Below are positions 1,774 to 44,686 of a DNA stretch of 44,966 nt, one piece after another. Source of the DNA: a virus. The notes under the pieces are model-generated. The model worked only from the letters and a program-made list of their open reading frames with translations. It did not search any database and had not been told where the DNA came from. The position numbers and the translations under genes were made by a program. The stretch lies in the IMG/VR virus record IMGVR_UViG_3300045988_027444. The stretch is one strand, 5' to 3'. The first letter of the stretch is position 1. Each line of letters opens with the position of its first letter.

Positions 1774-3567
1774 ATGAAAACACAAACAATTGCAAAACCA
1801 TCTTTCACTAAATCAAAAGCCTATGGTCTTTGCGGAACACTTGCGCTCGCTACAGCATTGCTTATCGGTGCTGGCCAAATATCAGCGGACGAAACAACAC
1901 AGCCAGTAGTTGACGCTCAACCAGCGGTGTCTAATGTCTATACAGCTGACAACGCTGGAAATGTCACAGTTACACCTAGCGAACCAGCGGCAGAAACACC
2001 AAAAGTGTTGGCACCAGCACCAGTAGAATCTCAACCGATTGCAGAAGCACCAGCAACAGTCGAAACTACTCCAGCGGTTGCTACCGAATCAGCACCATTG
2101 GCAGAAGTAGCTCAACCAGTAGCTGAAACGCCTAAACAGCCTACTGAATTTGTCAAAGAAGACAACGAAATTAAAGTAACTAATCCAGATGTTATCGTTG
2201 ACCAATCAAACGGAACTGGTAAATACAGTGGTTTTACAGTGGAATATAAAGACGTTAAATTCCCAGATAGCATGCCTATCAACGAAGGGGATAAGGTAAC
2301 ATTCAACCTTCCAAAAGAAATCAACTTCCAAACAAACTATGATTTTGATGTCTATAACCCAGAAAAAGCTGTTGTTGGTAAGGCTTCAACTGACCCTAAG
2401 ACACAAACAGTAACAACCGTATTTAACGATTACTTCAAGAACCATCCACTCAATAAACAAATGTCATTGAAGCTCGATGCTAAGTGGACTGACAAGGTTG
2501 AAAGTGGCAAGCCAGTTAACGTTAATTTCAATGGTACAGTGGTTACTGTTAATATTGGCAAAGAACAAGAAATCGGTAAAGATGAATTACTTTCTAAATG
2601 GGGCAGCCAAGACGAGAATGACCCAACTGTTATCAACTGGACTGCTCGTATTAACTACGCTAAGAGAGTGCTCAACTATGTGACTATCATTGATGAAATG
2701 TCAGAGAATCAAAAGTTAGTTGATAACTTCTTTGAAGTAAAGAATATTGAAAGTGTTGATCCGTGGATTGACAAAGGCTCAGCTATGGACTTAGTTAAGT
2801 CTATCAGTAAGTCAGATCGTGGCTTTACTATCAAGATGGATCGCTTGGATCACATGATCTACATCAACTATAAGACTAAGCTTGTTAACGCTGTCAAGGA
2901 CTCAGTTAACCCAACGAACAAAATTGAGTTGAAAGCAGAAACAGATGGAGCTACTTCGTATAGCTATGTACAACTCGTAGGAGGAAAGGGTGATGCGTCT
3001 GGTGAGAACAAACCAGAACCAACTTTTGAGGTGCCAAACGAAGCGCCTAAAGTAGACATTCCAGAATTTGAGGGCGGTATCCCCGGAATCCCAGAGGTGC
3101 GAGAATTACCGGAGTATACTGAGCCAATCGGAACAGTTCCTAATGAAGCCCCAGTACATGATAAGCCAGAGTTCCAAGGTGGTATCCCTGGTATTCCAGA
3201 AGAACGTGAGCTCCCACCATTTGAAGGTGGCACAGTGCCAAACGATGCCCCTGTCCTTGACTTGCCAGAATTGCACATTCCGGAAGAACCAACTAAGCCA
3301 ACACCAGAAAAACCAGTGACACCAAAAGAAGTGCCTAACAAGCCCGCAGACGCTCCTAAAGATAAAGCGGCACAATCTACCACAGTATCGTATAAGCTCG
3401 ATTCCGAGCCAAAAGAGGTGGCAAATACGACGGTTTACGGTGGTGTTCTCCCTAACACTGGTGAGAAAGAGGGCATCATGTCAACTCTTGGTCTAGCAGT
3501 TATCGCTGTTGGTATCGCAGGTTTGACATTGAGCTTCAAGAAATATAACGAAAGAGGAGAGAATTAA
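1774..3567 (+). CDS. LPXTG cell-wall-anchored surface adhesin, Cna/MSCRAMM-like collagen-binding-type domain plus Pro-rich repeats
   Basis: ATG 1774 follows an AAGGAG RBS. Signal peptide ends ...GAGQISA/DE. GDKVTFNLP...VTTVFNDYF resembles a Cna-type fold. Three PNEAP..PEF.GGIPGIPE repeats. LPNTG (3448-3462), then a TM helix and KKYNERGEN tail. Confidence 0.85.
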   Translation: MKTQTIAKPSFTKSKAYGLCGTLALATALLIGAGQISADETTQPVVDAQPAVSNVYTADNAGNVTVTPSEPAAETPKVLAPAPVESQPIAEAPATVETTPAVATESAPLAEVAQPVAETPKQPTEFVKEDNEIKVTNPDVIVDQSNGTGKYSGFTVEYKDVKFPDSMPINEGDKVTFNLPKEINFQTNYDFDVYNPEKAVVGKASTDPKTQTVTTVFNDYFKNHPLNKQMSLKLDAKWTDKVESGKPVNVNFNGTVVTVNIGKEQEIGKDELLSKWGSQDENDPTVINWTARINYAKRVLNYVTIIDEMSENQKLVDNFFEVKNIESVDPWIDKGSAMDLVKSISKSDRGFTIKMDRLDHMIYINYKTKLVNAVKDSVNPTNKIELKAETDGATSYSYVQLVGGKGDASGENKPEPTFEVPNEAPKVDIPEFEGGIPGIPEVRELPEYTEPIGTVPNEAPVHDKPEFQGGIPGIPEERELPPFEGGTVPNDAPVLDLPELHIPEEPTKPTPEKPVTPKEVPNKPADAPKDKAAQSTTVSYKLDSEPKEVANTTVYGGVLPNTGEKEGIMSTLGLAVIAVGIAGLTLSFKKYNERGEN

Positions 3568-3782
3568 TGGAAGTAAAAAAAGAACCTAAAACCTCTTATC
3601 ATCACGTTAGATGTAGCAAAGAGGCTTATGACCAAATCGCTGAAATCGCTAATGAGTGTGACTTGACTATTGCTAATGTAGCTACTTCATTACTACTCTA
3701 TGCGTTGAATCACACCGAAATCGTCAGTGTTGAAAAAGTAGTGACTGAGAGCCGCTTAGTCATCGGAGGTGGGAACGAATGA
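3567..3782 (+). CDS. Small protein, possibly ribbon-helix-helix DNA binding
   Basis: TAATG overlap with the adhesin stop. The beta-alpha-alpha pattern (HHVRCSKEAYDQIAEIANE...) is suggestive only. Confidence 0.5.
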   Translation: MEVKKEPKTSYHHVRCSKEAYDQIAEIANECDLTIANVATSLLLYALNHTEIVSVEKVVTESRLVIGGGNE

Positions 3783-5092
3783 GTATCGCAATAAATAAGC
3801 TAGAGATTGAAAACGTCAAACGGATCAAAGCAGTTAAGGTTGAGCCATCACCTACCGGTCTAACGGTAATTGGTGGAAATAACAACCAAGGCAAAACTAG
3901 CGTGCTAGATTCTATCGCTTGGGCTTTGGGTGGAAATCGTTTTAAACCTAGCAAGGCAACCCGTGAGGGGTCTGTTATCCCTCCATCGCTCAAGATCACT
4001 ATGTCAAATGGCTTGGTCGTTGAACGCAAAGGTAAGAATAGTTCGCTTAAGGTTATTGATCCAGAGGGTAATAAAGGTGGACAACAACTGCTTGACAGTT
4101 TTGTTGAAGAGTTGGCTATTAATTTGCCTAAGTTTATGGAAAGTACAGCCAAAGAAAAAGCTGATACGCTCTTACAAATCATTGGGGTTGGGCCGCAGTT
4201 GGCTGAGCTTGAAATCAAAGAAAAGCAATTGTATGACCAACGTCATGCCATTGGTGTTATCGCTGACCAAAAAGAGAAGTTCGCCAAAGAACAGACTTAC
4301 TATCCAGATGCGCCAAAAGAACTTATCTCTATCGCTGACTTGATTGCTGAACAGCAGGAAGTTTTAGCCAGGAATGGGGAAAATGCTCGCAAACGCCAAA
4401 ACGCTAGTCAAATCCAAGCGCAATATGATGCCAAAGTGGCAGAAGTCAACCGTCTGTCACAGCAATTGGTAGAGGCTCAGGAAATTTTACAAAAGCTCGC
4501 TGATGATTTGGCTATCGCTCATAAAGATGCGACTGACTTGGTAGATGAATCCACTGAGGAAATCGAAAGCAATATTGCTAACATCGAACAGATTAACCTT
4601 AAAGTCCGTGCTAACTTGGACAAGGACAAAGCGGAAGAGGATGCCAAGGCTCAACGTGAGCAGTATAACAAGTTGTCTGTTCAAATCGAAGATGTTCGTA
4701 AAAGTAAACGTGACTTATTAACCAATGCAAACTTGCCTCTGGAAGGCTTGATTGTAGATGATGGGAAGTTACTTTACCTTGGTCAAGAATGGGATAACAT
4801 GTCGGGATCTCAACAACTCATGGTAGCGACCGCAATTGTCCGAAAACTAAAACCAGATTGTGGCTTCGTTTTAATCGACAAGCTCGAACAAATGGACCAA
4901 ATCACATTGGACCAATTTGGAAAATGGCTTGAGGATGAAGGTCTCCAAGCTATTGCAACGAGAGTATCGACTGGTGATGAATGCTCAATTATCATCGAAG
5001 ATGGTTATAGCATCGACAACAAAACGCATCAGCCAACAGTTGAAGCCAAATCCGAAACACCACAAACGCCATCATGGCAAGGAGGATTTTAA
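3779..5092 (+). CDS. SMC/RecF-like AAA ATPase with coiled-coil insert
   Basis: N-terminal Walker A GGNNNQGKTS. Long coiled-coil middle. C-terminal signature/Walker B region (SGSQQL...VLIDKLE). Confidence 0.75.
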   Translation: MSIAINKLEIENVKRIKAVKVEPSPTGLTVIGGNNNQGKTSVLDSIAWALGGNRFKPSKATREGSVIPPSLKITMSNGLVVERKGKNSSLKVIDPEGNKGGQQLLDSFVEELAINLPKFMESTAKEKADTLLQIIGVGPQLAELEIKEKQLYDQRHAIGVIADQKEKFAKEQTYYPDAPKELISIADLIAEQQEVLARNGENARKRQNASQIQAQYDAKVAEVNRLSQQLVEAQEILQKLADDLAIAHKDATDLVDESTEEIESNIANIEQINLKVRANLDKDKAEEDAKAQREQYNKLSVQIEDVRKSKRDLLTNANLPLEGLIVDDGKLLYLGQEWDNMSGSQQLMVATAIVRKLKPDCGFVLIDKLEQMDQITLDQFGKWLEDEGLQAIATRVSTGDECSIIIEDGYSIDNKTHQPTVEAKSETPQTPSWQGGF

Positions 5093-8547: not shown

Positions 8548-10803
8548 ATGTCAGAAGGTACTTTTGATTTAATCCCACTCTTAGATTATATTGACCCTTC
8601 TACATTGTCTTATCAAGAGTGGGTAAACGTAGGAATGGCCCTAAAACAAGAAGGTTATACGGCAATGGATTGGGACGCTTGGTCTCAATCAGATGGCCGT
8701 TATAAAAAGGGAGAATGCTTCACTAAATGGGATACTTTTCACAATAATGGCTCTGGTGCTGTGACTGGAGCTACCATCACTCAGATGGCTAAAAACAATG
8801 GTTGGGAGCCTATGAACAAGTCAGGCGAAAGCTACGAACTTAGCTGGGATTCAACTATTGATCGTGATTATCAAATCGTTGATAAAAATTGGGTCGAATC
8901 AAAGGAAATCCGAGAACCAATCAATTGGCATCCAGTCCAAGATCTTGTCAAATACATCGAAACATTGTTTGAAATGACAGACCTCGTTGGCTATGTCACA
9001 TCAACTTATCCGATTGAAACAGAGAATGGGCCAATCTATAAGCCAACTCAAGGCAATTACGACAGGACTGCCGGAGAGCTTATTAAAGAACTTCAGAGTA
9101 ATGGCGATGATATCGGTGCAGTTTTTGGAGACTACAAGGAAGAAGCTGGCGCCTGGATTCGTTTCAACCCGTTGGATGGAAAGGGTGTCAAGAACGATAA
9201 CGTCACTGATTTCAGATACGCTCTAGTAGAATCGGACAGCATGGAGCTCGGGAAACAATACGCTCTATTTAAAGAGTTAGAGCTTCCTATTGCTACACTA
9301 GTACACTCTGGGCACAAGTCGTTGCATGCAGTGGTACGAGTGGATGCTAGAGACTATCAAGAATATCGGAAACGTGTCGATTACATTTATCAGATTTGTA
9401 AGAAAAATGGACTTGATATTGATACCCAAAACCGTAATCCAAGCCGACTCTCTCGCATGCCTGGAGTAATCCGAAATGGGCATAAGCAGTTCTTGATTGA
9501 TACGAATCTTGGGAAAGCTAACTACGAAGAATGGTATCAATGGGTAGAAGATTTAAACGACGACCTTCCGGATCCTGAAACACTAGCAGACGAGTGGGAC
9601 CACCTTCCAGATTTAGCCCCAGAGCTTATCCATGGGGTATTGCGTCAAGGTCATAAGATGCTGATTGCAGGGCCGTCAAAAGCTGGTAAGTCGTTTGCTC
9701 TCATCGAGTTATCAATCGCTATTGCAGAGGGGCGAAAGTGGCTCGGCTGGCAGTGCGAACAAGGTAAGGTTCTCTATGTCAATCTAGAGTTGGATAGACC
9801 GTCAGCTCTTCACCGTTTTAAAGATGTTTATGCTGCTATGGGCATGCCACCTAATAGTGTCGCCAATATCGACATCTGGAACCTTCGGGGAAAGACCGTG
9901 CCAATGGATAAGTTAGCACCTAAACTCATTCGACGGTCCCTTAAGAAGAATTACCAAGCAGTTATTATTGACCCTATCTATAAGGTTCTGACAGGGGATG
10001 AAAACTCTGCAGACCAAATGGCCCATTTTACCAATCAATTCGATAAGGTAGCTACTGAGCTGGGTTGTGCCGTTATCTACTGCCACCATCACTCAAAAGG
10101 TTCTCAAGGTGGCAAGAAATCCATGGACCGTGCTAGTGGTTCAGGAGTGTTCGCTCGTGACCCTGACGCTCTGGTTGATTTAGTAGAGTTAGAGCTTAAC
10201 GACGATCTTGTTAAAGCTCGGACTGAAAAAGCAACAGCTAAGATTTACCAAAGAGCCTTGCAAGAACAGGCTAACGATTATTACCAACAGGATGTCAGTC
10301 TTGACGATTTGGAAAGTCGTTATCAAATGCAACAGCATTTTGACAAGGCTATCCCAGACATTCTAAAACGCAAGCCCTATTTGGATGAAGTTCAGTCCAC
10401 AGTCCACGCTATCGAGATTGCGACAGCGTGGCGTGTTGAAGGGACCCTCCGAGAGTTCGCCAAATTTGCCCCTGTGAATATGTGGTTCAGCTACCCAGTC
10501 CATGAAGTGGATACTACTGGTGTGCTGGCTGATATCCAACTGGAAGATAACGCCCCAGCTTGGAAAAAGAACCTAAATAAAGGTCCAGAATCGAAGAAGA
10601 AGACAGCAGAAAAAAATAAAGAAAAGCTAGTTAACGCTATTCAAGCGTTAGACGATGGAATGGATCCAGTTACAATTGACGATGTCGTGGAATATTTTTC
10701 AACAGAAGATAAACCTGTTAGCGAAAAAACTATCAGAAGATGGATCAAAAACTCAGAAATTTTTGAGGTGAAAAATGGAAAAATTCACCAAAAAAATACC
10801 TGA
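8548..10803 (+). CDS. Primase (PriCT-like N-terminus, primase-polymerase core) fused to a RecA-like/DnaB-like ATPase
   Basis: Zinc-less N-terminal PriCT-like region, central catalytic region, Walker A GPSKAGKS and Walker B AVIIDPI. Confidence 0.75.
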   Translation: MSEGTFDLIPLLDYIDPSTLSYQEWVNVGMALKQEGYTAMDWDAWSQSDGRYKKGECFTKWDTFHNNGSGAVTGATITQMAKNNGWEPMNKSGESYELSWDSTIDRDYQIVDKNWVESKEIREPINWHPVQDLVKYIETLFEMTDLVGYVTSTYPIETENGPIYKPTQGNYDRTAGELIKELQSNGDDIGAVFGDYKEEAGAWIRFNPLDGKGVKNDNVTDFRYALVESDSMELGKQYALFKELELPIATLVHSGHKSLHAVVRVDARDYQEYRKRVDYIYQICKKNGLDIDTQNRNPSRLSRMPGVIRNGHKQFLIDTNLGKANYEEWYQWVEDLNDDLPDPETLADEWDHLPDLAPELIHGVLRQGHKMLIAGPSKAGKSFALIELSIAIAEGRKWLGWQCEQGKVLYVNLELDRPSALHRFKDVYAAMGMPPNSVANIDIWNLRGKTVPMDKLAPKLIRRSLKKNYQAVIIDPIYKVLTGDENSADQMAHFTNQFDKVATELGCAVIYCHHHSKGSQGGKKSMDRASGSGVFARDPDALVDLVELELNDDLVKARTEKATAKIYQRALQEQANDYYQQDVSLDDLESRYQMQQHFDKAIPDILKRKPYLDEVQSTVHAIEIATAWRVEGTLREFAKFAPVNMWFSYPVHEVDTTGVLADIQLEDNAPAWKKNLNKGPESKKKTAEKNKEKLVNAIQALDDGMDPVTIDDVVEYFSTEDKPVSEKTIRRWIKNSEIFEVKNGKIHQKNT

Positions 10804-10814
10804 AAATTCAAAAA

Positions 10815-11076
10815 GGGACAGGGACAAATTGGGGACAAATTGGAGGGACAAATTGGAAGAAAAAACCCATTTTGTCCGTCCCAAAAAAGGGACAAATTGG
10901 AAAATGTCCGAATGTCCCTAAAGCCTAATAGGGACAAGGGACAAATTGGAAAATGTCCCTAAGAAATCGCTCAACCATGCGGCTTTGGAGCAATAGGGAC
11001 AAATTGGAAAAAATAGGGACAAAACCAGGGACAGAATATCTCCCTCTGTGAGGAGAGATATTTAGGAAAATGTCCC
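10815..11076. repeat. Iteron array, putative phage origin of replication
   Basis: GGGACAAATTGG occurs at 10821, 10832, 10845, 10889, 10938 and 10996. Inverted TGTCCC partners occur at 10911-10918, 10951-10959 and 11067-11076. The array is non-coding and directly downstream of the primase. Confidence 0.75.
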
Positions 11077-11215
11077 TGAGAGTTCAGAAGAACAGGTACA
11101 GGAACATGGGGGTCCTAAGACTCCCCCATGTAACCCTGTAACCCTGTCCTTCACTCTGAACTTAGGCGCGTGAGCGTGGTAAGTAAAAAGAAAGAGTAAA
11201 AAGGTAAAAAAAATT

Positions 11216-11467
11216 ATGGCACGAAAGAAAAAAACATATTCGGTCAAATTAGATATTGGTAAAAAAATGCCTCCACTTTATCACACGTTACCGGGTCAAG
11301 ATTTTTGGTATTCAGATTCAGAGGTTTTGAAATGGATCGCGAATCAACCGATTCTCTTGAATTGGGTAAAGGACCAGCTCAAAACGGCTGGATATATTAC
11401 CTATGACAGAGAGAATGGAAAATGGACCGGTATCGATTATCAAGGTGAGGTGGCGAAAAATGATTGA
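11216..11467 (+). CDS. Hypothetical protein, 83 aa
   Basis: ORF that overlaps the start of the next gene. No motif recognised. Confidence 0.6.
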   Translation: MARKKKTYSVKLDIGKKMPPLYHTLPGQDFWYSDSEVLKWIANQPILLNWVKDQLKTAGYITYDRENGKWTGIDYQGEVAKND

Positions 11468-11855
11468 ATTTTTCGTTCCGATGAAAAAAATCCCAACTAC
11501 AACGCATCAGCAAAAGAAAGTCACTGTCAGAAATGGTAAACCGCATTTCTATGAGCCTCAAAGTTTGAAGGAAGCCAGAAGTCTATTCACTGAGTTGTTA
11601 AGCGCATACACTCCAAAAGAGCAGATAGACGGACCTATACGCCTCACAGTGAAATGGCTATTTCCTAAAATCAAAAAAGCGACTCATGGCCAGTACAAGA
11701 CTACTAAACCAGATACGGATAATTTACAAAAATTACTTAAGGACTGCATGACGAATCTTGGCTATTGGCATGATGATGCACAAGTGGCTAGTGAGATTGC
11801 TGAAAAGTTCTGGTCGGATACTGTGGGCATCTATGTCAAGGTGGAACAGCTATGA
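11460..11855 (+). CDS. rusA: RusA-family Holliday junction resolvase
   Basis: Start at MIEFFVPM after GGTGAGGTGG. Contains the KPDTDNLQKLLKDCM...WHDDAQV motif typical of RusA. Confidence 0.8.
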   Translation: MIEFFVPMKKIPTTTHQQKKVTVRNGKPHFYEPQSLKEARSLFTELLSAYTPKEQIDGPIRLTVKWLFPKIKKATHGQYKTTKPDTDNLQKLLKDCMTNLGYWHDDAQVASEIAEKFWSDTVGIYVKVEQL

Positions 11856-12088
11856 ACTATATCGAATTTTTTGAAAAAGAAGTCCCGGACTGGATGAGGG
11901 AAAGCAATCGCATGATGCAATTGCTTGGTTTTAACACCCCTGCATACTGGAATTGGGTAATTGCCTCTATCGATAATGTTTGCGAAAAATATAACAACGA
12001 CATTCTGGTTAAAAATCAATTCCATATCATCTGGGATTTTCTAGATGAGAAGGCCAGGGAGGTTCAAACCATAGATGCAACAGATTGA
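11852..12088 (+). CDS. Hypothetical protein, 78 aa
   Basis: ATGA overlap with the rusA stop. Confidence 0.6.
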   Translation: MNYIEFFEKEVPDWMRESNRMMQLLGFNTPAYWNWVIASIDNVCEKYNNDILVKNQFHIIWDFLDEKAREVQTIDATD

Positions 12089-12115
12089 TTTTTTGTGAAG
12101 TAGAGGAAGCAGAAA

Positions 12116-12271
12116 ATGAAATATAAAGTAATCGTCTATTATGACGACATGGAAGACAGTGAGCATGTTTTCCATACAAAGAATGAAGCAATCAACGAAA
12201 TGCACAGATTGAAATTGAAATATCGCAATGCTAAGAAATATAAGGTAGAAATGGTGGAATGTGATGGATAG
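12116..12271 (+). CDS. Small hypothetical protein, 51 aa (MKYKVIVYYDDMEDSEHVF...)
   Basis: ATG 12116 follows GAGGAAGCAGAAA. Hand-translated, and it overlaps the next start. Confidence 0.45.
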   Translation: MKYKVIVYYDDMEDSEHVFHTKNEAINEMHRLKLKYRNAKKYKVEMVECDG

Positions 12272-12773
12272 AAATGAAGCAATAAGCCGAGAAGAAGCGG
12301 TACGGACAATATCAAGGATATCTGGTGGATCCGTATCTTACGCAGAAGACCTTTACGATTCGTTCTTCCCTAAACCAGTGGTGTCGCAATGTGTGGCGGA
12401 TTGGTATGAGGAACATAAGAATGACTTAAATGATGATATTTGGGCATATCTTACAAGCTGGGCTGATACGAAATGGGACGAGTTCAAATACTGGATGTAC
12501 CATACTGGCAGGAACAAAGCCATCACTACCCTCGCAAACATGCACCAGTTCGGCTACGAGGTCGAGAAAGAGCCTAGGTATACGGTTAGAGTGAAAGGAA
12601 TAAACGGGTCTCATCAGTGGTTGGCTTTCGGCAAACTGACGGAGTGTTGGTGGTTTGGGGGCAAGGAAAACTCTTCCTATGTCGTTCTTGAACACACCCG
12701 CAAAGAGCTAGAAGATGCTGATTTTGGCTGGATGTTCGATTGCGAAGGCGTGGAAGTTAAGGAGGTGGAGTAA
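12264..12773 (+). CDS. DUF1642-like phage protein
   Basis: ORF of 169-170 aa starting at ATG 12264 or GTG 12261. The family call is from memory. Confidence 0.55.
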   Translation: MDRNEAISREEAVRTISRISGGSVSYAEDLYDSFFPKPVVSQCVADWYEEHKNDLNDDIWAYLTSWADTKWDEFKYWMYHTGRNKAITTLANMHQFGYEVEKEPRYTVRVKGINGSHQWLAFGKLTECWWFGGKENSSYVVLEHTRKELEDADFGWMFDCEGVEVKEVE

Positions 12774-13138
12774 TGGTAAAACTCGTATTTATCGCAGAGC
12801 CTGAAGAACCGACGTATGACAGTATGTCAGAACTAATCGACAAGGTCAACGAGTGGGCAGATGAACGCAATTTAAAACAAGCTGACCCTAAGATTCAGTG
12901 GATGCGTATCACGGAAGAAGTCGGTGAGATTCGAGATGTACTCTTGAAACCAACGAAATTCACGGAACCACAAGCAGCGTTGAAAGATGCAATCGGTGAC
13001 ACGCTAGTAACGATTATCGTACTAGCACATCAGTTAGACCTCGATGTAACTGAATGTCTTGGTATTGCTTACGAGGAAATCAAGAACAGGAAAGGAAAAA
13101 TGATTAATGGAACTTTCGTCAAAGAAGAAGACCTCTAA
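12773..13138 (+). CDS. MazG-like nucleotide pyrophosphohydrolase
   Basis: The EEVGEIRD...DAIGDTLV metal-binding helices are typical of small phage MazG proteins. Confidence 0.7.
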   Translation: MVKLVFIAEPEEPTYDSMSELIDKVNEWADERNLKQADPKIQWMRITEEVGEIRDVLLKPTKFTEPQAALKDAIGDTLVTIIVLAHQLDLDVTECLGIAYEEIKNRKGKMINGTFVKEEDL

Positions 13139-13139
13139 G

Positions 13140-13895
13140 ATGATTGTCTGGGCATTATTCGATAGTGGAAACGGATCATATACCAAGGGTGTTAAGAAGC
13201 TGGACAAAGATATTGAAATCTATCCAATAGGCATTGATATTGAAAATAAAAATCATCATTTTATCAATCTGAATTTAGCTGATTATAGCCGTTTGTTTGG
13301 AGATAACACCCTATTTGACACATTGGACAAATTGCCTAAACCTGATCTGATTATCGCTAGCCCACCGTGTGAAAGTTGGTCTAATGCTAGCGCTATGGAT
13401 AGAGGAAATGCTTGTTGGAAACAAGAGCAAGGCGACTCTTTATTTCAACCACAAGAACCCTTGTCGATATTTACCGTTCGTGATCATAAGGATTATAACA
13501 GATATCAATATTACCCCAATAAGCAGCTTATGAAACGTATCAATGGTGAATTATGTGTGTTCAATACAGTTGAAATCATCAAACGATACAAACCCAAATA
13601 TTGGATCATAGAGAATCCAGCTCATGGCAGAATTTGGCAATACATTGAGAGAGTGCTAGGTTTCGAAATCCCGTTTGAGAATCATACAAAGTACAACAAT
13701 TATGACGACTATCCTATTTCTAAACCAACTCGATTCTCTGGGAATATTGAATTGAATCTTAAAAATGAAAAGAAATCAAATGGCATCAAATTTCAAGATT
13801 GGACGAAATCCTATAATGAGAGGTCAAACATTCCTCTGAGTTTGGTTTGCGAGATTTTAAAAAAGGTATATAAGGGGTTTATGAGTGAAACATAA
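13140..13895 (+). CDS. Compact C5-cytosine DNA methyltransferase-like protein (251 aa)
   Basis: Start at MIVWALF. Motif I-like LFDSGNGS, motif IV-like SPPCESWS, motif VI-like IIENP, motif X-like RSNIPLSLV. Confidence 0.55.
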   Translation: MIVWALFDSGNGSYTKGVKKLDKDIEIYPIGIDIENKNHHFINLNLADYSRLFGDNTLFDTLDKLPKPDLIIASPPCESWSNASAMDRGNACWKQEQGDSLFQPQEPLSIFTVRDHKDYNRYQYYPNKQLMKRINGELCVFNTVEIIKRYKPKYWIIENPAHGRIWQYIERVLGFEIPFENHTKYNNYDDYPISKPTRFSGNIELNLKNEKKSNGIKFQDWTKSYNERSNIPLSLVCEILKKVYKGFMSET

Positions 13896-40540: not shown

Positions 40541-40597
40541 TAAAGAAAAAGCCTATCATATCAAGGTTTAAACCTTGGTAGATAGGTCTTTTTTTAT
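40541..40597. terminator. Bidirectional terminator downstream of int
   Basis: cctatc...gatagg encloses the perfect palindrome caaggtttaaaccttg. An A-run lies on one side and T7 on the other. Confidence 0.7.
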
Positions 40598-41772
40598 TCT
40601 AAGGGGCAAGAAAGGGGCAAGTTATCAATGATTTCAACTACCTTATTCTTCATTTTGTTGGTGACGTGAGTATAAATCTTCATCGTTGTATCACTGTCAT
40701 CATGCCCAACTCTATCCATGATAGCCTTTAACGGGACGCCATTCTCAGCTAGATAACTGACCAGCGTATGCCTGAAGATATGTGATGATATTGGTTTGTT
40801 AATTGGCTTATCTAGTCGCTTGTTAGCTGCTTGAATAGAATTGTTAAATGAGTTTCGTTGAAGTGGTACGCCCTTGTCAGTCACAAAAATATAATCCCTA
40901 TCCATGGTCACCCAATCGTCTGATAGCGACCTGTTTAGATCCCGAATCTGTATAGCTTCATCTAGTAATTCAATTTCACGCTTGGTTAGTTTATTGCTAC
41001 GATAGCCTGCTGGGGTCTTAGGTGGTTCCTTTTTTGCTCTCTTGTAGCCCTGGACGCTATCCAGGGTGCCAAAAATATCAAGGTATCCGTCCTCTTTTCT
41101 GTAATTGCACGTTTCAAGGGCTACCGCTTCACCGATTCGAGCACCGCTGACAAAGAGAAACTCTGCAAGGATGGCATTTCTATAAGTGCGTTTTTGCTTT
41201 CGTAATTCTGCAAGTAGCGGAAGTAGTTCAGTGTCTATCTCTAGAAACTTATTTCTTATCTTGTCGTAATCTTCCATCGTTTGCTGTTTCTTGGGAAGTT
41301 TTGCTTGCCTTGCAGGATTGCTAGGAATGTAACCAACGGTGCAAGCGTAATCGAAGGTTAGATTCAATATAGATTTAACACGCTCAAGGATTGAACGTGG
41401 AACATCGGCATCGTTGATAAAGCGTTGGATATAGTGTGTATCAATGTTTGCTATTTTGACATCTACAGCGAAATTCTCTTCGACATACCTGACATTGCTG
41501 GTCATGGAACTAATCGAAGTCCTTCGAATGCCTTTCTTGTGAAATTCCCACCACTCGCTCAACACATCGTTAAATGATGCGTCGGTAGTGTTTAAGCCAG
41601 CCATCTTTTCAGCTATCTTATCATCCAGTAAGCGTTGAGCCTCTTTCTTTGCTCGATTTGAGCCACTGTTGAGCGTAACAGATACCCGTCTCCATTTCTC
41701 AGTGTAAGTGTCCTTGTATCTTTCAAAATATTTATATTTTCCATTCGGTAATTCTTCTACCCACATTGTCAT
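40594..41772 (-). CDS. int: Tyrosine recombinase / phage integrase
   Basis: The C-terminal catalytic set is ..GARIGE.., HIFRHT and GHDDSDTTMKIYTHV. The RBS is AGGAGA. Confidence 0.9.
   Translation of the reverse strand: MTMWVEELPNGKYKYFERYKDTYTEKWRRVSVTLNSGSNRAKKEAQRLLDDKIAEKMAGLNTTDASFNDVLSEWWEFHKKGIRRTSISSMTSNVRYVEENFAVDVKIANIDTHYIQRFINDADVPRSILERVKSILNLTFDYACTVGYIPSNPARQAKLPKKQQTMEDYDKIRNKFLEIDTELLPLLAELRKQKRTYRNAILAEFLFVSGARIGEAVALETCNYRKEDGYLDIFGTLDSVQGYKRAKKEPPKTPAGYRSNKLTKREIELLDEAIQIRDLNRSLSDDWVTMDRDYIFVTDKGVPLQRNSFNNSIQAANKRLDKPINKPISSHIFRHTLVSYLAENGVPLKAIMDRVGHDDSDTTMKIYTHVTNKMKNKVVEIIDNLPLSCPLE
40601..40620 (+). repeat. AAGGGGCAA direct repeat pair inside the last codons of int
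   Basis: aaggggcaagaaaggggcaa, which encodes LPLSCPL on the minus strand. Confidence 0.45.
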
Positions 41773-41901: not shown

Positions 41902-42534
41902 TTATTTAACCTTGACTTTCATTTCTCCATTAAGTTTTTGACTTGCAATAGCACTGCCATCATCCGCTTTAATGTGAAACATTGGATAGCGCTCATAATT
42001 GACATTGTTAATTGCAGCCCAAACGTTAAATGCTTCATGTTCTTTGGCAAGCATGCCATCAGCGAATTTTTGTAAATCGGTTTTGTCATAGTATTTATAA
42101 TCAACAGGTACCGACATATACAAAATGGTATCACGATTATAAAAACCATATTGACTAATATCTACACCTTTTTCTGTCAAATCTTTTTGGAAGTATTCGA
42201 TAAAGCTAGCCATTTGATCAGCGGTAACATCTTTAGGGCCATCTGAAGAACTTGATTCTTTAGTTTCGCTTTTAGATTCTTTTTCTTCGGAAGAGCTTGA
42301 TTCTTTTGAAGCCTTCTCCTCTCGTTGAGGGTTAGACAAGTCTGAACTACTGCTGGTTTTAGTCTTGGTTTTGGTTTTTGGCTTAGAAGAAGACGTTTGG
42401 ACAGTCTTGACTGGTTCTGTCTTCGTTTCTGGAGCGATACCAGTTATTTCAAAAAACTTACCAAGTACAGCCAAACCTAATATGACAACAACCCACTTTT
42501 GCCAGCGTTTCAAATTCTTCCATTTACTCAACAT
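41902..42534 (-). CDS. N-terminally membrane-anchored protein with a Ser/Lys/Glu-rich linker and a ~110-aa extracellular domain
   Basis: TM helix WVVVILGLAVLGKFF, low-complexity linker, RBS AAGGAG 8 nt upstream. Located between immA and int. Confidence 0.7.
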   Translation of the reverse strand: MLSKWKNLKRWQKWVVVILGLAVLGKFFEITGIAPETKTEPVKTVQTSSSKPKTKTKTKTSSSSDLSNPQREEKASKESSSSEEKESKSETKESSSSDGPKDVTADQMASFIEYFQKDLTEKGVDISQYGFYNRDTILYMSVPVDYKYYDKTDLQKFADGMLAKEHEAFNVWAAINNVNYERYPMFHIKADDGSAIASQKLNGEMKVKVK

Positions 42535-42536
42535 TT

Positions 42537-42905
42537 TTAAATCTCCTTTAGTTTTAGATATTCATTTTTTACAAAAGTCTCATCACAAATAGTGGTGAGA
42601 TTATATTTTTCCATAAAGTGGACGTAGTTGAAGTCGTCCAGGGATTCGTTTTCGAGCAATCCACGGATCATGTCTCTATTAGCTTGAGCCTCATACTTTT
42701 CTCGCAGACGCTCATAGTGTTTAGGATCGTGTTCTAGGTGGCCTAATTCGTGCAGTAGGACCTTTAAACGTCTTTCGACGGGTAAATCCCTATTGATGTA
42801 AACCACACGGTTAACAGGGTCTAGAAACCCATCTCGTGGCCACTGGCTAGAGTCGAACTCACAAAGAGACACGTTGAACTGCTCAAGTAATTCTTTTTCA
42901 GGCAT
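42537..42905 (-). CDS. ImmA/IrrE-family zinc metallopeptidase
   Basis: HEXXH motif LLHELGHLEH. Size and location in the lysogeny module. Confidence 0.85.
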   Translation of the reverse strand: MPEKELLEQFNVSLCEFDSSQWPRDGFLDPVNRVVYINRDLPVERRLKVLLHELGHLEHDPKHYERLREKYEAQANRDMIRGLLENESLDDFNYVHFMEKYNLTTICDETFVKNEYLKLKEI

Positions 42906-43046
42906 AGCTTCCTCGTATCGGTTTCTATAAAAAACAAAAGAGCCAATCCAACAAACGAACTGGCCCTTTTTAGACGTTTTGTTCCCTTACACTTGCGCAC
43001 GCACAAGCCATAGGGCGCTGAACTTAATCAGTCTTCCACTAAAAAT

Positions 43047-43075
43047 AGTCTACAAAATGTTTTATTTATTGTCAA
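43047..43075 (-). promoter_or_regulatory. Minus-strand promoter for immA, the membrane-protein gene and possibly int
   Basis: Reverse complement gives TTGACA (43070-43075), a 17-nt spacer and TAGACT (43047-43052). The adjacent palindrome aatgttt..aaacatt (43075-43099) overlaps the first base of the -35. Confidence 0.5.
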
Positions 43076-43185
43076 TGTTTTTACAAAAAAGTAAACATTT
43101 TAACCAGTTCTGGTATTTTCGTGTAATCAGATGCATACCTTTGCATTCAGTCAATAAGATTTTGAATTTTCAAGCCTTGATGATA

Positions 43186-43758
43186 TTATTTGCCGAACCA
43201 GACAGGAATAGCAATACCGGCAAGAGCTACAAGGATACCAATAAACCAATAAGTGAATTCTTTTCTATTCTTGGCTTGTTCCTCGAGTTGCCTATTGGTT
43301 TGTGCTAAGAACATGTTTTCCATGCGTTGACCAAAGGTATCAAATTTAGCGTCAATCTTTTGGTCCATCATCTGGAATTTTAAGTCCAGTTCGTTTTTGG
43401 CGTACATGTCGTCTAGTTTGTTTTCAATTTTTTCAATACGACGCCCTAACTGATCAGTGCGAAGAGATAGCTCAGTCTTATCTTGATTTAAGCTCTGGGC
43501 TGTTTGTTGAAGGAAATGTTGAGTGTTTTCTTCGTTCTTTTCCAATCTTTGCTCCAGCGCTTGAATATCCAGCTCACGATACAAGTCAATAGCCATTTGT
43601 CTTACCTCATCTATTTGATTTTGTAAATCCATTATATCACTTGCATGGGGTGTTTGGGTGTTGATTCTTTTGCTAGAGTTTATAGAAGTCACCTTAGACG
43701 GTCTAGCGCTTGCAGTGGCATTTGTTTCAGGAACTTCGATATCTTGAGTGTTATTCAT
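43186..43758 (-). CDS. Unknown tail-anchored coiled-coil membrane protein (190 aa)
   Basis: Disordered N-terminus, long coiled coil, and a single C-terminal TM helix FTYWFIGILVALAGIAIPVWF. Its start overlaps the upstream stop by 8 nt. Confidence 0.7.
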   Translation of the reverse strand: MNNTQDIEVPETNATASARPSKVTSINSSKRINTQTPHASDIMDLQNQIDEVRQMAIDLYRELDIQALEQRLEKNEENTQHFLQQTAQSLNQDKTELSLRTDQLGRRIEKIENKLDDMYAKNELDLKFQMMDQKIDAKFDTFGQRMENMFLAQTNRQLEEQAKNRKEFTYWFIGILVALAGIAIPVWFGK

Positions 43759-44179
43759 TCATACCACCCCCGAAATAGTAGTAGCAGTAAAATGTATCAG
43801 TAGCCTCGCCACCTTTTATCAAAGCGAACAACAGGAACAAATCCCCTTTTTCCATCAAATTTAAATCAAAGGTAAAATCCCCGGCTGCTTTCCCGTAGCC
43901 CTCGTTATCGGGAGCTAAAATGCTTGACTTTGGTATATAGACGTTTGTAGCATGGACAAGATAAGGCTCTCTACTTGGGAAATTTGCAGTAACTACTAGC
44001 GTGTAGTTCGTTTCGGGTTGGATGTTAAAGAAATCTATAGAACAATTCAGCGCCACGCCTATCGGATAACTCGATAAGTTGTTTAATGTGCTAAGTTCGT
44101 CACCGCTGTCAGCTTCAAAAAGTTTGACTCCAGCAATCTTTTCTTTAAATGGATTTGACTTCGTAGCGACACTTACCAT
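43751..44179 (-). CDS. Unknown beta-rich soluble protein (142 aa)
   Basis: ATG 44179 lies 1 nt after the cI stop, and the AAGGGAGAA RBS sits inside the cI 3' end. No motif recognised. Confidence 0.7.
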   Translation of the reverse strand: MVSVATKSNPFKEKIAGVKLFEADSGDELSTLNNLSSYPIGVALNCSIDFFNIQPETNYTLVVTANFPSREPYLVHATNVYIPKSSILAPDNEGYGKAAGDFTFDLNLMEKGDLFLLFALIKGGEATDTFYCYYYFGGGMNE

Positions 44180-44180
44180 A

Positions 44181-44561
44181 CTATTCTCCCTTACTACTCA
44201 TATAACCTGCAATAATGCCACGGATAGCCCGCTTGTCATCCTCAGTCAGCGGTTTACCGTCGAACATCATGGCGTTGTCGATGATTTCATCGATGTCATG
44301 GGTATTAGGTTGTGGGTCGTCGGTCATAGGGGCGTCGTATCCCATGAGCCACGCTTCAGACACTCCCAACGTTCTAGCAAGTAACACTAACTTTTCTTGG
44401 TCTGGTGTTGATTTCCCATTGATATACTGAGACAAAGCGCTCTTTCCGAGTTTTACACCTAGTTCTTTTTGATGAGCTTTTGAAAGAGAAATTATATCAA
44501 CTTGTTTTAAGTTCCGTTCGCTCATAATTTGCTGCAAACGTGAAGCAGTAGTATTTTTCAT
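44181..44561 (-). CDS. CI-like XRE-family HTH repressor
   Basis: HTH LKQVDIISLS...SALSQYINGKSTP, divergent from the cro-like gene. Confidence 0.85.
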   Translation of the reverse strand: MKNTTASRLQQIMSERNLKQVDIISLSKAHQKELGVKLGKSALSQYINGKSTPDQEKLVLLARTLGVSEAWLMGYDAPMTDDPQPNTHDIDEIIDNAMMFDGKPLTEDDKRAIRGIIAGYMSSKGE

Positions 44562-44588: not shown

Positions 44589-44617
44589 ATTATATAGTAG
44601 AAAACAAAAAAGTTCAA
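44589..44617 (-). promoter_or_regulatory. Repressor promoter (TTGAAC-17-TATAAT on the minus strand)
   Basis: The reverse complement of gttcaa at 44612-44617 gives the -35, and that of attata at 44589-44594 gives the -10. The spacer is 17 nt. Confidence 0.65.
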
Positions 44618-44657: not shown

Positions 44658-44686
44658 TTGACAAAATAAAAGAGAAGGATTAAAAT
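44658..44686 (+). promoter_or_regulatory. Early lytic promoter (TTGACA-17-TAAAAT) for the cro-like gene
   Basis: TTGACA at 44658-44663, a 17-nt spacer and TAAAAT at 44681-44686. Confidence 0.7.

Follow-up and report, generated by a model that had tools for sequence, protein, structure and literature searches.

Two small, tightly coupled genes, orf142 and orf190, lie directly downstream of the cI-type repressor gene in a 44,966-bp stretch of viral DNA (IMG/VR record IMGVR_UViG_3300045988_027444; hereafter the window), and comparison across streptococcal prophages indicates that the two together make up an accessory cassette of prophage lysogeny modules, complete in itself and able to spread horizontally. 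We give an even chance to the proposal that this cassette is a lysogen-expressed defence module directed against other phages. The window covers in full the circularly permuted genome of a temperate Streptococcus phage, one of the S. thermophilus/S. salivarius group. The structural genes are 76-78% identical to those of many S. thermophilus phages, and the lysogeny module is matched at 89% by Javan534, Javan535 and Javan539, prophages of S. salivarius. The module occupies the right end of the window on the minus strand, in the order cI, orf142, orf190, a 280-nt gap, ImmA, orf210 and integrase.

The preliminary description of this DNA had reported two translationally coupled genes behind cI, the first with its ATG at 44179 just past the cI stop at 44181 and the second overlapping the first by 8 nt, and the coordinates agree with it exactly. 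The stop codon of cI (TAG, 44183-44181) is followed by one spacer base and the start codon of orf142 (ATG, 44179-44177), whose ribosome-binding site (AAGGGAG, 44192-44186) lies within cI, 6 nt 5' of the ATG. The stop codon of orf142 (TAA, 43753-43751) and the start codon of orf190 (ATG, 43758-43756) fall in an 8-nt overlap within ATGAATGAATAA. Given these 1-nt and overlapping junctions, and since a sequence scan of cI-orf142-orf190 returned no convincing terminator upstream of position 42970, we infer that the two genes are co-transcribed with cI. ImmA starts 280 nt 3' of orf190 and about 1.3 kb from cI, a displacement that had likewise been described correctly.

Both orf142 and orf190 are real genes rather than chance open reading frames, because they match PHROG families (PHROG 10787, E=1.6e-31, and PHROG 6701, E=1.7e-31, respectively, both of unknown function), are represented by homologs in 29 and 23 records of phages, all from Streptococcus, and show constrained evolution. 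The ratios of nonsynonymous to synonymous divergence (dN/dS) relative to the Javan535 orthologs are 0.25 for orf142 and 0.13 for orf190, which points to purifying selection on both. A survey of co-occurrence in related prophages, as suggested in the preliminary description, was based on the gene contexts of phage records and of contigs encoding homologous proteins, and the pair was found to recur as a unit in the interval between repressor and integrase. One representative was taken from each group of phage records with an orf142 homolog, comprising S. salivarius Javan535, S. pneumoniae IPP34, S. suis Javan551/576/589, S. entericus Javan173, S. agalactiae phiGBSVK-D and Javan23, and S. parauberis Javan394. 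In each of them the next open reading frame encodes a tail-anchored coiled-coil protein of the orf190 family, either overlapping or at most 3 nt away, and the cassette is invariably enclosed by repressor and integrase, with which it shares the strand. The pair is present in prophages of at least seven Streptococcus species, and divergent metagenomic and genomic members (loci L012, L013, L017, L019 and L022) share the same layout. An orf190-type frame lies directly 3' of the orf142 homolog at L001, L002, L003, L005, L006, L007, L008, L010, L011, L012, L013, L017, L019 and L022, and the same pairing is seen in S. thermophilus (L023 and L026), with identities across the paired loci that fall to about 25-30%. 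At their junction, the two genes of every complete pair examined overlap by up to 16 nt or are at most 3 nt apart, and the combination of PHROG 10787 with PHROG 6701 in this layout was found in the window and at no fewer than 14 other loci.

The repressor beside the cassette is either of a short helix-turn-helix type accompanied by ImmA or of a long S24 type, with which ImmA is absent, and the integrase is either a tyrosine or a serine recombinase. ImmA lies 5' of the pair in Javan551, Javan576 and L019, and 3' of it in the window, Javan535 and IPP34. The earlier statement that the pair splits CI from ImmA is therefore true of the window, but it describes a lineage-specific arrangement and not a property of the cassette. 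In Sfi21, where ImmA lies 6 nt from cI, the pair is absent, as it is in Javan536, which shares 89% nucleotide identity with the window over the cI-cro region. Relative to Javan535, the synonymous divergence (dS) of the pair is 0.21-0.27, three to four times lower than that of cI (0.77) and ImmA (0.89), which suggests recent exchange of the pair as a unit between lysogeny modules that are otherwise more diverged. The S. thermophilus copies of the pair are 81-87% identical to that of the window, whereas cI is only about 50% identical. Taken together, these values argue that the pair moves as one block and separately from the switch genes.

The product of orf142 had been pictured as a beta-rich soluble protein, and its AlphaFold2 (AF2) model is indeed all-beta, forming an eight-strand beta-sandwich with a predicted local distance difference test score (pLDDT) of 94 and a predicted template modelling score (pTM) of 0.86. 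In a viral structure library the model matches a family member from S. suis phi20c (template modelling score, TM, 0.92) and a protein of an Anoxybacillus phage (TM 0.69). A PDB search with sequence profiles of the orf142 and orf190 families came back empty. The orf142 family is narrow: an exhaustive phmmer search of 1.84 billion representatives returned 33 clusters with E < 1e-3, almost all of them standalone proteins of about 140 aa. Its conserved residues (E13, K14, P39, N52, Y59, G96 and Y133) do not look catalytic, and for this reason we read the protein as a binding module. The best PDB matches of the model are a GbpA domain, the immunoglobulin (Ig)-like domains of GH2 enzymes, the carbohydrate-binding domain of Wzt, UNC119/RhoGDI and the Pycsar AGS-C domain, none of which is specific enough for a function to be transferred.

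A standalone member of the orf142 family (P0053; 5001-5420 of L014-L016) lies between aroA and eno and has no downstream partner; contigs with this gene are spread across 69 blocks of the collection index. It is probably a minimal prophage remnant, because related prophages integrate beside eno (L030).

For orf190, the previously described architecture of a disordered N-terminus, a long coiled coil and a C-terminal transmembrane helix is borne out by the AF2 model. In the model, residues 1-36 are disordered and are followed by a long helix (39-160) and the transmembrane helix (165-186), with a pLDDT of 64, as expected of an extended helix. The Kyte-Doolittle maximum of 2.13 is located at residue 171, in WFIGILVALAGIAIPVWFG, and since only GK follows this helix, nearly all of the protein should face the cytoplasm. 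The resemblance to XhlA that had been noted (PF10779, a family of Bacillus phage lysis cassettes) is confined to architecture, namely a helical or coiled-coil cytoplasmic region and a single C-terminal transmembrane helix; a Pfam scan at E <= 1 did not list PF10779 for orf190, and one at E <= 0.1 did not list it for seven homologous partner proteins. Moreover, XhlA belongs to a lysis cassette, whereas orf190 is located in a lysogeny module between cI and ImmA/integrase.

Variants of orf190 occur in two other settings. The chimera P0028 consists of the first 160 residues of an orf190 homolog joined in frame to a Peptidase_S24 domain of the LexA/cI type, which replaces the membrane anchor. Its gene follows cI and orf142 in a prophage integrated beside eno and was found in three contigs from at least two samples (L029, 5001-5903; L030, 570-1472). 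In TP-J34 (HE861935.1; L004, 2971-3441), orf55 is an inverted relic of the orf190 family 3' of the lysin gene, with 91% identity over residues 45-190, and orf49 of TP-778L is another. A CUG start codon has been predicted for orf55 of TP-J34 (PMC3952083). We considered orf55/orf49 as an independent, 'lysogenic conversion' copy of orf190 and discarded this idea, as the sequence is 5'-truncated, begins abruptly after the lysin terminator and is devoid of a proper start codon. A search of the available literature library for orf142 or orf190 returned no paper describing either gene.

In a second type of arrangement, the orf142 family is coupled to a protein of a different kind. In the satellite Javan277 of S. 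intermedius (L009), the gene that starts within 2-3 nt of the orf142 homolog encodes an Abi_2/AbiD protein of 351 aa. The same pairing is found on an independent contig (L018), with identities to the two Javan277 proteins of only 47% and 54%. Matches to Pfam (E=6e-26) and to PADLOC AbiD (E=2e-26) underlie the assignment to AbiD. Because Javan277 and L018 carry AbiD in the place of orf190, members of the orf142 family are found upstream of, and coupled to, two kinds of protein that are unrelated to each other, and one of these kinds is a validated abortive-infection family. The measurable phage resistance provided by AbiD in S. thermophilus has been validated experimentally, and AbiD has been described as a single-gene system, with no mention of an upstream partner of the orf142 type (PMC11514479, PMC12322248). 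The upstream gene in Javan277 encodes a Fic protein (PADLOC PDC-S04, E=2e-115; SoFic, E=2e-28).

In Javan277, the genes for Fic, the orf142 homolog and AbiD (2160-4478) adjoin the integrase gene and look like a defence islet in a streptococcal satellite. In Javan576 (L005, 1832-2318), a RelE/StbE toxin gene and a small upstream open reading frame are located between cI and ImmA, in the general slot that the pair occupies elsewhere.

The pair has also been kept in prophages that can no longer grow lytically. S. thermophilus CP065488.1 and CP145130.1, and many metagenome contigs, carry a prophage remnant of about 4.5 kb beside rplS that consists of a cro-like gene, cI, orf142, orf190, ImmA and the genes for a CD20-like membrane protein and an integrase; all lytic genes have been lost. 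Host genes directly flank both sides of the remnant (L023, about 8900-13255, in CP065488.1; L026 is CP145130.1). In CP145130.1 the integrase gene is a pseudogene with in-frame stops, and orf142 and orf190 are intact. Such retention of the pair fits a role that benefits the host.

A role in exclusion or abortive infection is plausible, and it is strengthened by the alternative AbiD partner, the SoFic-like neighbours, the retention in remnants and the presence or absence of the pair among relatives. In the mechanism that we propose, orf142, as a cytoplasmic beta-sandwich binding module, would be made first through translational coupling and would serve as sensor, regulator or safety catch of the downstream effector. 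The effector orf190 would be held in the membrane by its C-terminal helix, with nearly all of its mass in the cytoplasm, and would oligomerise via its long helix, and the two proteins would interact physically. Upon infection, orf190 might then perturb the membrane and cause abortive infection, or act on the cytoplasmic side of the membrane to keep the genome from entering. Such a scheme would follow the logic of lambda cI-rexA-rexB, in which a soluble and a membrane partner share the immunity operon, although the proteins are unrelated. A further extension, by which the orf142 family is a portable front-end (a sensor or safety catch) for unrelated toxic effectors of either the tail-anchored or the AbiD type, is offered tentatively and is in our view rather doubtful.

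Several observations weigh against a defensive function. Neither protein has a meaningful match in Pfam or NCBIfam. In PADLOC-DB 2.0 there is none for orf142 and none at or below 1e-3 for orf190, the best matches of which are weak coiled-coil ones such as LeoC (E=0.003). Foldseek searches of the PDB with orf142 returned only generic Ig-like or carbohydrate/lipid-binding sandwiches with a TM of about 0.5. A mostly cytoplasmic, tail-anchored protein would be atypical among the known Gram-positive exclusion proteins. The production of the pair in the lysogen is deduced from its operon position, the association with AbiD comes from two lineages, and the retention in remnants could be explained equally well by the immunity that cI provides or by the neighbouring membrane protein. 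The protein P0032 (288 aa; L012, 168-1034), a seeming fusion of orf142 and orf190, proved to be a gene-calling artefact, the DNA having an in-frame stop. A docking motif shared by the N-termini of orf190 (SKVTSINSSKRIN) and of the AbiD partner (SKVTQLHSNSRKN) found no support against shuffled sequences: when a hidden Markov model of the N-termini of the transmembrane partners was run on the AbiD sequences, 278 and 973 of 2000 shuffles scored as well or better. The database entry of P0032 has Q at the position of the stop codon, and apparent fusions in that collection need caution.

Some of the evidence can also be accommodated by an addiction module of the toxin-antitoxin (TA) type, in which orf190 would be a membrane toxin checked by orf142, the prophage would be stabilised and defence would be secondary. 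A small coupled upstream partner followed by a potentially toxic one is the classic type II layout, a RelE/antitoxin pair occupies the same slot in Javan576, and the pair stays intact in remnants that are unable to excise. The AbiD partner has an Rx4H motif (RNAVAH), which resembles the HEPN motif of toxin families. The likeness to type II TA systems lies in gene order and coupling alone, however, since neither protein matches a known TA family in Pfam or PADLOC, and a chromosomal orf142 homolog exists without a partner, which, if that gene is not a relic, would be unexpected of an antitoxin. We regard this explanation as unlikely, while noting that it overlaps heavily with abortive infection and that the two are hard to separate by sequence. 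A role in lysogeny control, whereby a membrane-tethered module would tune the activity of the repressor or ImmA or the timing of induction, for instance by coupling the state of the envelope to the switch, has to contend with the absence of the pair from Sfi21, whose cI is 47% identical and whose ImmA is related, and from Javan536, which argues that the pair is dispensable for the switch. It also has to contend with the occurrence of the pair beside unrelated repressor types, with ImmA on either side or absent, and with the pairing of orf142 with AbiD in a satellite. Such a role is quite unlikely in our estimation, even though the pair is co-oriented and coupled with cI and separates it from ImmA in the window, Javan535 and IPP34, and the N-terminal 160 aa of orf190 are joined to an S24 domain in three contigs.

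It is very unlikely, finally, that the pair is a lysogenic-conversion factor which acts on host physiology (envelope, division, competence or colonisation) and has no anti-phage role. Both proteins are predicted to be cytoplasmic or to face the cytoplasm and have no signal peptide, no link to a known virulence or fitness family was found, and the AbiD and SoFic context indicates phage conflict. These points are set against a moron-like position, a presence/absence polymorphism, a distribution across commensal and pathogenic streptococci, and the similarity of the orf142 fold to carbohydrate- or lipid-binding modules at a TM of about 0.5.

A defensive function would place the cassette beside several known systems, to none of which it is homologous in the comparisons made. 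In phage lambda, the immunity operon continues directly 3' of cI with rexA and rexB, which are expressed in the lysogen, are dispensable for lysogeny and exclude superinfecting phages with depolarisation of the membrane. The cassette has the same layout, with two genes directly 3' of cI that encode one soluble and one membrane protein, but no Rex family was listed for orf142 or orf190 in the Pfam scan at E <= 1. RexB is polytopic, whereas orf190 is a single-pass, tail-anchored protein with a long cytoplasmic helix; RexA is larger than the 142-aa beta-sandwich of orf142, and the host here is Gram-positive. The relationship to AbiD/AbiF (Pfam Abi_2) is one of replacement, as AbiD substitutes for orf190 in L018 and in satellites of the Javan277 type, where it lies directly 3' of the orf142 homolog and is coupled to it just as tightly. 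Neither orf142 nor orf190 matches Pfam PF07751 or PADLOC AbiD, and only the partners in L009 and L018 do so.

The Sie proteins of lactococci are held in the membrane by an N-terminal anchor. Exclusion genes such as ltp of TP-J34 and those of the Sie2009 type lie between repressor and integrase and are transcribed with the lysogeny module of the prophage (PMC3952083, PMC6356513). The cassette shares this location with Ltp of TP-J34, Sie2009 and, by annotation, orf203 of Sfi21, but it differs from all three in having two coupled genes rather than one, in the cytoplasmic position of its bulk and in the lack of homology. Ltp, moreover, is a surface-exposed lipoprotein (PMC3952083).

The gap of 280 nt that follows orf190 does not support the claim in the preliminary description that ImmA is served by a promoter of its own. 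It contains a single promoter-like site (TTGACA-17-TAGACT, 43075-43047), which is separated from ImmA by a strong terminator-like element, a 15-bp hairpin followed by a T-run (GTTTTTTAT, 42970-42926). This hairpin lies about 75 nt 3' of the promoter-like site, ends about 20 nt before the ATG of ImmA and is present in both the minimum free energy and the centroid folds. Because hairpin and T-run lie between the promoter-like site and ImmA, the region 42926-43185 is probably a terminator or attenuator for the cI-orf142-orf190 transcript; promoter-like site and hairpin together could give rise to a transcript of roughly 115 nt or to an attenuator upstream of ImmA. The hairpin region is missing from Javan535 and from the remnants in S. 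thermophilus, where only 15 nt separate orf190 from ImmA. Positions 42981-43035 match unannotated intergenic DNA in more than 30 records of S. thermophilus phages (apparently virulent and of the dairy type) at about 84% identity.

The remaining genes of the module are neighbours of the cassette. The repressor is 47% identical to the cI-like repressor of Sfi21, and its C-terminal tail resembles that of the Sfi21 orf127 repressor; ImmA is a homolog of Sfi21 orf122, with 86-87% nucleotide identity. The membrane protein orf210 combines an N-terminal transmembrane helix and an S/K/E-rich low-complexity linker with a conserved C-terminal domain, and its gene occupies the slot of superinfection-exclusion genes in relatives, for example Sfi21 orf203 (annotated 'immunity region'). 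Homology between orf210 and Sfi21 orf203 was considered and rejected, as the two show no similarity; orf210 is the window's separate candidate for a superinfection-exclusion role. An Rfam scan of the lysogeny module gave nothing credible. The features are listed in Table 1.

Table 1. Features of the lysogeny module (positions refer to the window).
Feature	Coordinates	Strand	Basis
Cro-side promoter-like site, divergent from the repressor-operon site	44658-44686	+	Consensus scan
Promoter-like site of the repressor operon (TTGAAC-17-TATAAT)	44589-44617	-	Consensus scan match only
cI-type repressor, 126 aa	44181-44561	-	Pfam HTH_3, E=1.3e-10; phrog_2967, transcriptional regulator
orf142, 142 aa, soluble 8-strand beta-sandwich (predicted)	43751-44179	-	PHROG 10787
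orf190, 190 aa, tail-anchored, C-terminal transmembrane helix WFIGILVALAGIAIPVWFG (predicted)	43186-43758	-	PHROG 6701
Intergenic region, promoter-like site followed by hairpin with T-run	42926-43185	-	Consensus scan and folding
ImmA-type M78 metallopeptidase, 122 aa, cassette neighbour, not a member	42537-42905	-	Pfam Peptidase_M78, E=1.4e-10; phrog_87
orf210 membrane protein, cassette neighbour	41902-42534	-	phrog_9505, E=3e-56, function unknown
Tyrosine integrase, end of the lysogeny module	40594-41772	-	Pfam Phage_integrase, E=1.4e-23

Two surveys found no recognised defence system in S. thermophilus prophages save one superinfection-exclusion system (PMC12322248, PMC11514479). The cassette escapes detection by PADLOC, yet it is conserved across streptococcal prophages and has been kept in the industrial dairy species S. 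thermophilus, and we consider it accessory and probably defensive cargo of the prophage immunity operon. If it does provide resistance, it would constitute a Gram-positive counterpart to the lambda Rex paradigm, and dairy starter strains would gain a new resistance module that is transferable and, at about 1 kb, small. PHROG 10787 and PHROG 6701 would thereby be given a role, and some AbiD proteins possibly an accessory partner. Should the orf142 family also prove to be a portable front-end, this would define an abortive-infection system of a new, modular two-component design, with expression from the repressor operon and domestication in the form of the S. thermophilus remnants.

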